Shown: positions 6,001 through 9,000 of the stretch, piece by piece
How the letters are laid out: each line of letters opens with the position of its first letter
Numbering within the stretch: position 1 is the stretch's first letter
Assembly (NCBI RefSeq): GCF_045037415.1
Contig: NZ_CP173438.1
DNA from: Escherichia coli
GTDB lineage: Bacteria > Pseudomonadota > Gammaproteobacteria > Enterobacterales > Enterobacteriaceae
Length of the DNA stretch: 64,000 nt
Strand: one strand, 5' to 3'
Position numbers: made by a program

Positions 6001-9000
6001 GTCACTTTCGCTGCCATTGCAGAGGGGGAATATCACCTCTGATGCCGTATTTAACTTCTTCGATAACCTGTTACCCGATAGCCCGATTGTACGTGACCGG
6101 ATCGTTAAACGTTATCATGCTAAATCCAGACAACCGTTTGATTTATTGTCAGAAATAGGGCGAGACAGCGTTGGTGCCGTGACGTTAATCCCCGAAGATG
6201 AAACCGTAACGTGTCCGATAATGGCATGGGAAAAGCTTACTGAAGCCAGACTTGAAGAAGTATTAACGGCTTATAAAGCAGATATCCCGTTAGGCATGAT
6301 TAGAGAAGAAAATGACTTTCGCATCTCGGTTGCTGGCGCACAGGAGAAGACTGCGCTGCTCAGAATAGGCAATGACTGGTGCATTCCGAAGGGAATAACG
6401 CCAACGACGCACATTATCAAATTGCCGATTGGCGAAATCAGACAGCCCAATGCGACGCTCGATCTTAGCCAAAGCGTTGATAATGAGTATTACTGTTTGC
6501 TGCTGGCGAAAGAACTCGGGTTGAATGTTCCGGACGCAGAAATCATTAAAGCGGGAAGGGTGCGCGCGTTAGCGGTCGAACGTTTTGACAGGCGTTGGAA
6601 TACTGAGCGAACGGTTTTACTTCGCTTGCCACAGGAGGATATGTGCCAGACATTCGGTTTACCTTCATCGGTGAAATATGAATCAGATGGAGGCCCCGGT
6701 ATCGCGCAAATTATGGCTTTTTTGATGGGGTCCAGCGAGGCGCTGAAAGATCGCTATGATTTTATGAAGTTTCAGGTCTTCCAGTGGTTGATTGGCGCAA
6801 CGGATGGCCATGCAAAAAACTTCTCCGTATTTATTCAGGCTGGCGGCAGTTATCGGCTCACACCATTTTACGACATCATTTCGGCATTTCCGGTCCTTGG
6901 CGGTACGGGAATACACATCAGCGATCTCAAACTGGCAATGGGGCTTAACGCATCCAAAGGCAAAAAAACGGCAATCGATAAAATTTATCCGCGACATTTT
7001 CTGGCGACAGCAAAGGTGCTGAAATTCCCGGAAGTGCAGATGCATGAAATCCTGAGTGACTTTGCCAGAATGATTCCGGCAGCACTGGATAACGTGAAGA
7101 CTTCATTACCGACAGATTTTCCGGAGAACGTGGTGACGGCAGTTGAAACCAATGTGTTGAGGTTGCACGATCGGTTAAGCCGAGAATACGGTATTAAGTA
7201 AGATATGGGGTTTTGGTCGTTGTTAATGAGCAGAAATCATGAACCGCCAACGACTGGATTCGCCCTTGGTTTATATTGGTGCGCATAATGTATATTATGT
7301 TAAATTGATTATGAAGGTCCTTTACTTCACCATTCACATCCACACACAGATAAATCAATACGTTGTGATTTCTGACTTCCCTCCCGTTTCGGTAGAAAAA
7401 TCAACCTCTGTTCAGTGATGGCACACCATAGACCATGAGCTGGATAATTGCGTTGTTTACAGCAGCCAGCGCTTTGATGGCACTATATCCCTCACGCTTC
7501 TGAATATAATTCATAGCGCCGTGTAATTATCTTTAATCTCAAGTTAGCTAATCTCAGCATATCGTGTTGATATGCAATGTGAAATACAGAGAACAGTGAC
7601 TACAGCTGATGGAGGAAGCTATTTCCGATATTCGTCAACTTCCAAATATATCGTTTAAAACAGGTATCAGATATGAAAGCACTACTAATTACTGCATTAT
7701 TCATGGGATTCAGTTAGTTTCACCAGGCAAACATTAACCATAGCTAATGTTTATAGCCATATAAACTATTAGTACCTCTTGACCTTTCCTGACACTTCCC
7801 TTGTTCGCAATAATATTCTGTTTAGTCGCTGTTTATAAATAACATGCATAATGAAATCGTCATGTTATTTAGCGACATAAAATGTTTTTACAAATACTCT
7901 CTACAACAAGTGCAGCAATAAAATTGTTGTGAATAGGTGTCCTTGTAATTTAAAGATATTATCATTCTTCGTGAAATGTAATAACCATGGAAACTATATT
8001 CTCAGGGCAACATCCAATCAAGAATGATTCTTGTTTTATAAGCAATAACAGAATAACTTAATTGTTAACTCTCTTTATTCAGCTACTTAAATATAAATTT
8101 TGGAGAATTATGAAACTCAAACATGTCGGTATTATTGTCGTTTCTGTGTTGGCGATGTCGTCTGCTGCGGTAAGCGCAGCCGAGGGTGATGAATCAGTAA
8201 CGACCACTGTTAATGGCGGTGTAATTCATTTTAAAGGTGAAGTGGTAAATGCCGCTTGTGCGATTGATTCAGAATCAATGAACCAAACGGTTGAGCTGGG
8301 TCAGGTTCGTTCTTCTCGCCTGGCTAAAGCGGGTGACCTCAGCTCCGCCGTTGGCTTCAATATCAAGCTGAATGATTGTGATACCAATGTTTCCAGTAAT
8401 GCAGCTGTTGCATTCCTGGGTACTACTGTCACCAGTAATGACGATACATTAGCGCTGCAGAGTTCAGCGGCAGGCTCTGCCCAAAATGTCGGTATCCAAA
8501 TTTTGGACCGTACAGGGGAGGTATTAGTACTTGATGGTGCTACTTTTAGCGCTAAAACTGACTTGATTGATGGCACGAATATACTGCCGTTCCAGGCTCG
8601 TTATATTGCTCTCGGGCAGTCAGTAGCTGGTACTGCAAATGCTGATGCGACCTTCAAAGTTCAATATCTATAATTCACTCTTAAGGTGACTATGCGTCAT
8701 CTGAAATTGAAACAGGGTGTGTGTGGCATGGCTACGCACACCCGAGAAATTCACCAATGTTCATCTCATTATTAATGAAAAATGGTTTGTATTTTGGAGC
8801 GGTATGAAAAATCACATAATATCTAAACGATCAATAAACAACAGTAGTTAAACTTGCTGTTATTTAAAATATTTACTTGGTAGCAAGGTTTTCCTATCAA
8901 AAGAGAACCAACATTTATTACAAACGCATTAAGTCTGGAAACCCGGCGACTCGCCAATGTATTAGCAATATTTACCGATTGTCTGATGTAACGGTTTCCC

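Follow-up and report, generated by a model that had tools for sequence, protein, structure and literature searches.

dif, eroded island DNA and F9 fimbrial control DNA between hipA and fmlA in an ST131-like Escherichia coli

The interval between hipA and the F9 operon

The DNA analysed here (a stretch of 64 kb, referred to as the window) covers part of the replication terminus in the chromosome of an ST131-like E. coli of phylogroup B2, and the region of concern is the interval from hipA to the F9 (Fml/Yde) fimbrial operon. The left boundary is hipA (5879–7201, + strand), the toxin kinase of hipBA according to the PGAP annotation of strain EC-16-526, and the right boundary is the gene of the F9 major subunit, fmlA (8110–8673, + strand), annotated as "type 1 fimbrial major subunit FimA". 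An earlier note on this DNA had described the intervening 7202–8109 as an AT-rich stretch of about 900 bp lacking any open reading frame (ORF) of at least 60 aa, and as the longest gene-free stretch of the window. Both statements hold: the coordinates are right, the GC content is 35.1% as compared with 48.5% across the window, and no other 908-bp stretch of the window is as low in GC. ORFs of at least 60 aa are absent from 7202–8061, the longest ones being 59, 54, and 42 aa, and this ORF-free run of 860 nt is the window maximum, the runner-up being 401 nt long. Also in EC-16-526, which is 99.98% identical and collinear, no annotated intergenic gap of the region is longer than the hipA–fimA interval (910 bp; the second longest has 811 bp). 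A Pfam search with the three longest small ORFs of the gap (59, 54, and 42 aa) gave no match. One small ORF of the gap overlaps the whole of dif.

The stretch has no genes, but it does have a feature, the 28-bp dif site at 7278–7305. Between the stop codon of hipA and dif there is a 76-bp spacer (segment A, 7202–7277), which by alignment with EC-16-526, O157, and K-12 is conserved across E. coli lineages and which has a 2-bp indel relative to EC-16-526 near position 7237. The XerD side of dif is followed by a lineage-specific block (block B, 7306–7713) and this in turn by the conserved F9 control region (segment C, 7714–8109, + strand, 29.8% GC). The sequence identities and positions, the distribution across the population, and the lack of inversion were computed here; dif function, transcription start site (TSS) mapping, and H-NS binding are literature data, which were measured in K-12 or CFT073.

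The dif site at 7278–7305

The site dif for the resolution of chromosome dimers, on the + strand, matches the experimentally confirmed E. coli dif (reference sequence in PMC3025954) at 28 of 28 positions, with the XerC arm GGTGCGCATAA at 7278–7288, the central region TGTATA at 7289–7294, and the XerD arm TTATGTTAAAT at 7295–7305. When up to 9 mismatches are allowed, it is still the sole dif-like site in the 64-kb window, where the number of exact matches expected by chance is 0. Its position is shared, as judged by alignment, with K-12, O157, and EC-16-526, and in K-12 dif has been described as adjacent to hipA (PMC5638614). The site is intergenic and has a GC content of 28.6%; proteobacterial dif sites have been described as non-coding and low in GC (PMC2731167). 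Of KOPS (GGGNAGGG) there is one copy to the left, on the + strand, and there are six to the right, on the − strand, all seven pointing at dif, and three perfect matS sites lie near dif, where 0.47 would be expected. The GC-skew profile, in turn, did not place the terminus; the reason for this is that at the scale of a 64-kb window, with dif near one end and just 7 kb to its left, GC skew is uninformative.

The likeness to the E. coli dif/XerCD-FtsK system comprises the 28-bp sequence with its arm–centre–arm structure, the hipA-adjacent position at the terminus, the single copy in the window, the non-coding setting of low GC, and the polarity in Ter of convergent KOPS with matS nearby. Relative to K-12 dif the site itself is unchanged and the XerD-side flank alone differs, being block B and not the yneL block. 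Judged by this identity with the K-12 site, 7278–7305 should be a place of XerC/XerD- and FtsK-dependent dimer resolution. XerC and XerD would occupy the two 11-bp arms, FtsK guided by KOPS would arrive at dif at the division septum, and the recombinases would swap strands across the 6-bp centre, by which chromosome dimers would be resolved.

The exact 28-mer is found in more than 118 Enterobacterales species, in which the flanks are not conserved; immediately beyond the 28-mer the information content falls to ~0.1–0.3 bit. dif marks the replication terminus and at the same time serves CUS-1 and other Xer-exploiting phages as their attachment site, although in the window it is "empty", i.e., without an integrated prophage of this kind. 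A label such as "fimbrial regulatory region, possible phase switch" for the gap overlooks dif, which is where the value of annotating it lies.

Block B: island DNA on the XerD side of dif

Block B (7306–7713) consists of 408 bp of eroded, lineage-specific island DNA and sits in the slot that in K-12 and O157 is taken by the block of the AraC-like pseudogene yneL. Alignment with the K-12 yneL region, which had been proposed as a check, showed that the yneL segment is non-homologous and that a different block is in its place: neither the alignment nor blastn with a word size of 7 revealed homology of block B to the K-12/O157 yneL block on either strand. The idea that block B is the yneL block in inverted orientation was rejected on the same blastn result. 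Of 5426 genomes, 4313 have a yneL-type block, and 538 have block B complete; it is partial in 982 genomes, a figure that was also given for genomes with any part of it.

In CFT073, UTI89, and JA0257 there is an island of ~2–7 kb whose ends are matched by pieces of block B; the block is found in E2348/69, too. At 7457–7507 (− strand) there is a relic of an "acetylxylan esterase"-like gene, namely its last 16 codons and the stop codon (16 of 16 identical in tblastn, E about 1e-7); in CFT073 and UTI89 this gene is annotated as intact or longer. At 7673–7717 (+ strand) lies the 14-codon ORF MKALLITALFMGFS, a relic of a BhsA/YhcN-family pseudogene that retains the codons of the N-terminal signal peptide: its sequence corresponds to the first 13 codons (13 of 13 identical) of a pseudogene that is longer in E2348/69, where it reads MKALLITALFMGFISVNTASAAEEIHHADGK. 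PGAP annotates the homologous locus of E2348/69 and JA0257 as "multiple stress resistance protein BhsA, incomplete". What truncates the relic is a deletion of ~210 bp, as seen by comparison with UTI89 and E2348/69. The 14-codon ORF and a 22-codon ORF at 7435–7503 (+ strand) had both been noticed before and taken for relics, which is right for the former, whereas the latter is antisense to the 3′ end of the esterase pseudogene and, read in its own frame, no relic. A 100-bp sub-block (7508–7607) is seen solely in genomes with the full block; it has no match in CFT073, UTI89, JA0257, E2348/69, or phages, and its two "plasmid" matches are both to large, non-mobilizable E. coli records of chromosomal type.

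Block B is the residue, which we infer to be non-functional, of a B2-phylogroup island. The island, which other B2 strains possess, carried genes for an esterase, a transporter, a cupin, CMD, a hydrolase, a LysR-type protein, an SDR, and a BhsA-like protein, and in the present lineage deletion has reduced it to 408 bp, the leftover gene ends giving rise to the tiny ORFs.

Rather than ordinary island debris, block B might be a scar left by an IMEX that had been Xer-integrated on the XerD side of dif. Indeed, the alleles cease to be homologous precisely with the final base of the XerD arm, and in sister strains dif is a proven entry point (PMC4266046): UTI89 has one CUS-1-like filamentous prophage at dif and JA0257 has two in tandem, in both cases lying between a hybrid site with a perfect XerC arm (GGTGCGCATAATGTACGACTCGTTATGT in UTI89, in addition to dif) and an intact dif. 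In E2348/69, moreover, a 5.7-kb island directly follows dif, and at its far end there is a copy of the XerD arm (9 of 11 positions) and then block B. The window thus has the same attachment site as the CUS-1/YpfPhi/CTXphi type of integration, of which the occupied sites in UTI89 and JA0257, with hybrid site plus reconstituted dif, are examples. It differs in that its dif is unoccupied, that there are no phage genes, and that the hipA-side flank is contiguous with that of K-12. An integrated element would lie between dif and a hybrid site, whereas a search of the window for a second dif-like site (up to 9 mismatches) or a half-site bounding block B returned only dif itself and, at the junction of 7713 and 7714, no half-site. 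Block B and the yneL block hardly ever occur together, a pattern that points to replacement and not to insertion, and the genes of the island are metabolic, not of the phage or mobility type. Finally, the sharp boundary is also expected from selection on the 28 bp alone, conservation collapsing at the edges of dif across 118 species. A scar of Xer integration is therefore rather improbable, and ordinary deletion of a B2 island remains our explanation of block B.

The F9 control region

Segment C is present in 4914 of the 5426 genomes, in 3434 of them at full length, and its identity across phylogroups is 94–100%. It contains a sigma-70 promoter of the f9 operon (+ strand) with the −35 hexamer TAGTCG (7823–7828), a spacer of 18 bp, and the −10 hexamer CATAAT (7847–7852), all identical in the CFT073 sequence. 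By match to CFT073, the TSS is G7859, from which a 251-nt 5′ leader extends to position 8109, with the Shine-Dalgarno sequence GGAG at 8102–8105 (+ strand) and the ATG start codon at 8110. In CFT073 the f9 promoter has been characterized with these hexamers, an 18-bp spacer, and a single TSS (a G) determined by 5′ RACE 251 nt upstream of the start codon (Wurpel et al., 2014; PMC3966885). We could reproduce the published distance of 251 nt between TSS and ATG in the CFT073 sequence as well as in the window. The two promoters thus have the −35 and −10 hexamers, spacer, TSS, and downstream operon in common, and also the leader apart from one substitution.

In CFT073, an hns mutation derepresses f9, and H-NS shifts a fragment with the f9 promoter in EMSA (PMC3966885). 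The region had been put forward as a candidate for H-NS silencing, and these published data on binding and repression, obtained with the same promoter sequence, support it; in the present strain, H-NS would thus be expected to bind and silence the DNA of 7714–8109, as judged by the experiments in CFT073. The high-affinity H-NS motif TCGATAAATT is not enriched in the gap, with 3 matches (up to 2 mismatches), where ~1.7 per 908 bp is the mean across the window. It should be added that the reports on thermoregulation of F9 are in conflict (PMC3966885 vs. PMC12890032) and that, therefore, silencing by H-NS is not the whole of F9 regulation. For the 251-nt leader, the search for a thermometer-like structure yielded a fold no more stable than that of shuffled sequences (z = −0.38). 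In outline, the F9 control region would comprise a single sigma-70 promoter starting at G7859 and an AT-rich leader of 251 nt, silenced by H-NS. The assumption that the control of the operon must reside in the gap is thus correct for the promoter-proximal ~290 bp (promoter, TSS, and leader, 7823–8109), but not for the distal part with dif; only the last ~290–400 bp of the gap are F9 control DNA, of which promoter, TSS, and H-NS repression had already been mapped.

Two further functions had been considered for the gap, a small RNA and a phase switch. It is very unlikely that an unannotated small RNA or small protein is encoded in the gap, e.g., in block B or on the strand antisense to the leader, although the non-coding stretch is long, has 8 promoter-like matches, and contains small ORFs of 14–59 codons. 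Rfam returned no family between 6500 and 9000 even at a permissive E ≤ 1 (at the gathering threshold the fdnG SECIS was the only hit in the whole window), there is no intrinsic terminator or terminator-like site in the gap, and the promoter-like matches are not above those in shuffled sequences (4.6 ± 2.1). Moreover, block B is lineage-specific and built by deletions from gene ends, the small ORFs are without Pfam match, one of them spanning dif, and the leader fold is, as mentioned, at the level of shuffles.

Many chaperone-usher operons are phase-variable, and fimS of type 1 fimbriae likewise is AT-rich, bears the promoter, measures a few hundred bp, and lies upstream of a fimA-like gene. 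It is nevertheless hardly credible that F9 varies in phase by inversion of a fimS-like promoter element, even if a perfect 9-bp pair (7814–7822 and 8047–8055) flanks the f9 promoter and TSS at a fimS-like 224 bp, since the inverted-repeat search for ends of an invertible element found six perfect 9-bp pairs in 1.6 kb of AT-rich DNA, roughly as many as we would estimate to arise by chance, and since no recombinase gene of the FimB/FimE type is adjacent, the upstream neighbour being hipA and the downstream one the gene of the fimbrial subunit. The switch via this pair was rejected on population data: segment C was found at 4919 places in 4914 genomes (4915 records), at most 2 per genome, and the sampled matches from these ~4900 genomes were either of full length or of the K-12-type deletion class (query 1–218), with no split or inverted class and no alternative orientation. 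The earlier note had named a single simple promoter as the finding that would speak against its proposals, and a single TSS, in the ON orientation, is what 5′ RACE revealed in CFT073 (PMC3966885).

We therefore read the gap, with a probability of about 0.88, as three unrelated parts, namely dif, the non-functional debris of block B, and the F9 control region. That block B lacks function, and that the K-12 and CFT073 data on dif, TSS, and H-NS are valid in the present strain, is what we infer from the sequence. The gap is ordinary in that its contents are three known things, i.e., dif, ~400 bp of decayed gene debris, and a mapped, H-NS-repressed F9 promoter with its leader, and everything essential about it is already known.

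What differs between lineages is the DNA between dif and the F9 promoter. In most E. coli this slot holds the AraC-like yneL, in B2 strains an island bearing a LysR gene, and in E2348/69 an island of defence genes with dif at one end and a decayed XerD arm at the other. In CFT073 the genes for a LysR remnant, an SDR, and an esterase persist there. K-12 shares with the window the hipA–dif segment, the f9 promoter, and the TSS; it differs by the yneL pseudogene block in place of block B and by a deletion, which extends from 72 nt into the leader (position 7931 of the window) into the usher gene ydeT and which removes the genes of the major subunit and the chaperone. The window has neither the CFT073-type genes nor the AraC-like yneL of EHEC and K-12, and therefore no candidate for a cis-encoded F9 regulator remains in it. 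ST131-type genomes have thus lost both candidate cis regulators, and the differences between lineages can be used to test the roles of yneL and LysR in F9 expression.

A perfect 11-bp inverted repeat (TAAATAACATG at 7836–7846 and CATGTTATTTA at 7861–7871, 14 bp apart) brackets the −10 hexamer and the TSS. An equally good inverted repeat arose in 24 of 2000 Markov-1 simulations of the region, and the corresponding DNA hairpin has a z of −3.5. A regulon search for the half-site elsewhere in the window gave matches at chance level, without enrichment. It is doubtful that the XerD-side flank of dif has been a gate for repeated gene turnover which swapped the DNA beside the F9 promoter, that all cis-encoded regulator candidates were lost in this way in the ST131-type allele, and that F9 is under the control only of H-NS and of a factor recognizing the palindrome at 7836–7871. 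A conserved palindrome over the −10 hexamer and the TSS does suggest a further regulator, and 7836–7871 is a candidate operator. The palindrome is invariant in 8 diverse E. coli sequences and as such offers a modest but testable lead.

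dif and the terminus signals around the hipA-F9 gap

The gap at 7202–8109 separates hipA (5879–7201, + strand) from the major subunit gene (8110–8673, + strand) of a six-gene chaperone-usher operon (fimA-like, chaperone, usher, ydeS, ydeR, ydeQ), which is the F9/Fml/Yde operon; yneE, tam and hipBA make up the one flank, and ydeP follows the operon on the other. The earlier note described the gap as AT-rich and the longest gene-free stretch, and this is borne out: its GC content of 35.1% (window 48.5%) is the lowest of all 908-bp stretches in the 64 kb, its run of 860 nt free of ORFs of at least 60 aa is the window's maximum (next 401 nt), and in strain EC-16-526, which is collinear with the window at 99.98% identity, the 910 bp between hipA and fimA are the region's largest annotated intergenic gap (next 811 bp). 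All ORFs in the gap are shorter than 60 aa, and the largest (59, 54 and 42 aa) had no match in a Pfam search. In a megablast search of 5426 complete E. coli genomes the region was found in 5269, with at least 80% covered in only 509. Alignment with EC-16-526, O157:H7 and K-12 divides the gap into a conserved segment A (7202–7305), a segment B (7306–7713) that cannot be aligned with K-12 or O157, and a conserved segment C (7714–8109). The essentials of the gap are all known already.

Segment A ends in GGTGCGCATAATGTATATTATGTTAAAT (7278–7305), which agrees at every base with the 28-bp dif of E. coli (chance expectation 0), a site that has been confirmed experimentally (PMC3025954). It is the only dif-like site with up to 9 mismatches in the window, and its position is the same in K-12, where dif has been described as adjoining hipA (PMC5638614), in O157 and in EC-16-526. 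All seven KOPS (GGGNAGGG) are directed at dif: the single motif left of the site lies on the + strand and the six right of it lie on the − strand (chance approximately 0.008 under random orientation). GC skew is uninformative at the scale of the window. Three perfect MatP-binding matS sites (GTGACRNYGTCAC; 30495–30507, 48897–48909 and 63835–63847), where 0.47 are expected by chance, are consistent with the Ter macrodomain. Both independent signals agree with the identity of dif. Judged from sequence, no other functional element in the distal part of the gap is as important, and the earlier note missed it.

The identical 28-mer is present in more than 118 Enterobacterales species (scan of species-representative genomes). 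Across the loci of 118 species (L014–L133) the information content is 2 bits within dif and approximately 0.1–0.3 bit immediately outside. Exceptions are A at −5 (96/118), a pyrimidine at −4 (116/118) and T at +5 (106/118), and furthermore TT at −2/−1 and T at −18. The conserved flank positions are obeyed by the window (7273–7277 and 7306–7310), K-12 and O157. The symmetry of A(−5) and T(+5) suggests that the dif site that is recognised is larger than 28 bp.

Block B and possible exchange at dif

Segment B (block B) is debris. In K-12 and O157 its place is taken by a block carrying the AraC-like pseudogene yneL (ECs2114/Z2199) (PMC7766294), to which block B has no similarity on either strand, so that the alignment with the K-12 yneL region proposed in the earlier note finds no counterpart. 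The yneL-type block is present in 4313 of the 5426 genomes and block B in 982 (complete in 538, ST131 strains such as JJ1887 among them). The dif-F9 DNA of sister B2 strains indicates the origin of block B. In CFT073 this interval, up to the F9 promoter, contains genes for an esterase and an SDR protein as well as a LysR remnant, and JA0257 has an island of approximately 7 kb with an esterase remnant, AEC transporter, cupin, carboxymuconolactone decarboxylase, alpha/beta hydrolase, LysR remnant, SDR and BhsA remnant. Positions 7306–7379 match the dif-proximal and 7608–7715 the promoter-proximal island end in all sister genomes compared, and 7380–7507 match UTI89 and CFT073; approximately 210 bp of UTI89 and E2348/69 are deleted in the window. 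Nothing corresponding to the 100-bp sub-block 7508–7607 was found in CFT073, UTI89, JA0257 and E2348/69 or among the phages of the collection. In a comparison at the protein level, 7457–7507 (− strand) is the relic of an esterase gene (last 16 codons plus stop codon), and 7673–7711 (+ strand) is the 5′ end, 13 codons long, of a BhsA/YhcN-like gene that in E2348/69 reads MKALLITALFMGFISVNTASAAEEIHHADGK. Both small ORFs that had been thought to be relics are present in the sequence. The 14-codon ORF (7673–7717, + strand) is a true relic because it consists of these N-terminal codons; the 22-codon ORF (7435–7503, + strand) is not one in its own frame, lying antisense to the esterase relic.

The boundary between the two alleles falls exactly where the XerD arm of dif ends, and this could hint at Xer-mediated exchange. 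Indeed, sister strains use dif: CUS-1/YpfPhi-like filamentous prophages (replication protein II/X, Zot, secretin) are found there in UTI89 (one; L006 7016–16574) and in JA0257 (two in tandem; L012 8889–25001). In UTI89 a hybrid site with a perfect XerC arm (GGTGCGCATAATGTACGACTCGTTATGT) adjoins hipA, and in both strains the intact dif adjoins block B. In E2348/69 a 5.7-kb island (L009 20116–25860) directly follows dif, the last base of which is T>G there, and has at its far end a copy of the XerD arm with 9 of 11 bases identical (ATAAGTTAAAT), followed by block B. It carries an integrase fragment, a reverse-transcriptase-domain gene, an ABC-three-component system and an AAA ATPase, and is possibly a defence-gene island for which dif was the point of entry. 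However, selection acting on nothing but the 28 bp should produce an equally sharp boundary, and the window lacks a second dif-like site. Neither a hybrid site nor phage genes were found at the window's dif, which is unoccupied.

A third type of dif flank is seen in SCPM-O-B-8794 (L039 5400–6454), where the F9 operon is wholly absent and dif is followed by approximately 1 kb of non-coding DNA and ydeP. In strain 2547 an IS1 has landed within the hipA-F9 gap.

The F9 control region

The view that the gap is the operon's regulatory DNA holds for segment C, which is the F9 control region; it overlooked dif, and segment B is debris. In CFT073 transcription of f9 starts, as determined by 5′ RACE, at a G 251 nt upstream of the start codon, with −10 CATAAT, −35 TAGTCG and a spacer of 18 bp (Wurpel et al., PMC3966885). 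The control DNA of the window is identical to that of CFT073 but for one substitution in the leader, with the −35 at 7823–7828, the −10 at 7847–7852, the start G at 7859 and the ATG at 8110. Segment C is found in 4914 genomes, in 3434 of them at full length; most of the others have the K-12-type deletion, which spares the promoter and 72 nt at the start of the leader. This F9-destroying deletion, a form shared by approximately 1480 genomes, begins 72 nt into the leader, and K-12 therefore retains the f9 promoter and start site (L003 3557–3776; window 7714–7931), which are now joined to internal sequence of the usher gene ydeT. At 7828–7830 the −35 varies: TAGTCG in B2 strains (window, CFT073, E2348/69, strain 8178), TAGTCA with an altered first spacer base in O157, K-12, AR_0118 and PRO_A-1534. 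The last strain carries an IS2 approximately 30 bp upstream of the F9 start codon and has lost much of the operon.

Silencing by H-NS, also proposed in the earlier note, has published data and the base composition (segment C 29.8% GC) in its favour but gains no support from motif counting: in CFT073 f9 is derepressed in an hns mutant, and H-NS shifts the promoter fragment (PMC3966885). On thermoregulation of F9 the published reports are in conflict (PMC3966885; PMC12890032).

The −10 hexamer and the start site are bracketed by a perfect 11-bp inverted repeat, TAAATAACATG (7836–7846) and CATGTTATTTA (7861–7871), separated by 14 bp. It is invariant across eight diverse E. coli sequences and has a DNA-hairpin z of −3.5; an equally good repeat arose in approximately 1.2% of Markov simulations. 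Since only the right arm is transcribed, any action would be at the DNA level, and the repeat is a candidate operator for a further regulator.

Phase switch, small RNA and other features of the window

For a phase switch there is no evidence, and the population data count against one: no inverted or split class of segment C was found in the sampled rows (4914 genomes, 4919 places). No recombinase gene adjoins the gap, and 9-bp inverted repeats are at chance level, one pair (7814–7822/8047–8055) happening to flank the promoter. Evidence for a small RNA is likewise absent from Rfam, terminator and promoter scans of the gap, with no Rfam match at E ≤ 1, no terminator-like sites and promoter-like matches not above shuffles; the predicted fold of the leader is not more stable than that of shuffled sequences (z = −0.38).

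At the gathering threshold a single Rfam family is present in the window, SECIS_3 (RF01989; 39617–39675, − strand; 84 bits), at the place of fdnG (formate dehydrogenase-N alpha subunit) in the annotation of the neighbour genome. The L007 annotation gives two genes of this lineage as pseudogenes: an M16 metallopeptidase gene adjoining ydeM (approximately 21672–22589), the N-terminus of which is missing, and a diguanylate-cyclase gene upstream of dosP (approximately 27870–28033), a frameshifted fragment.
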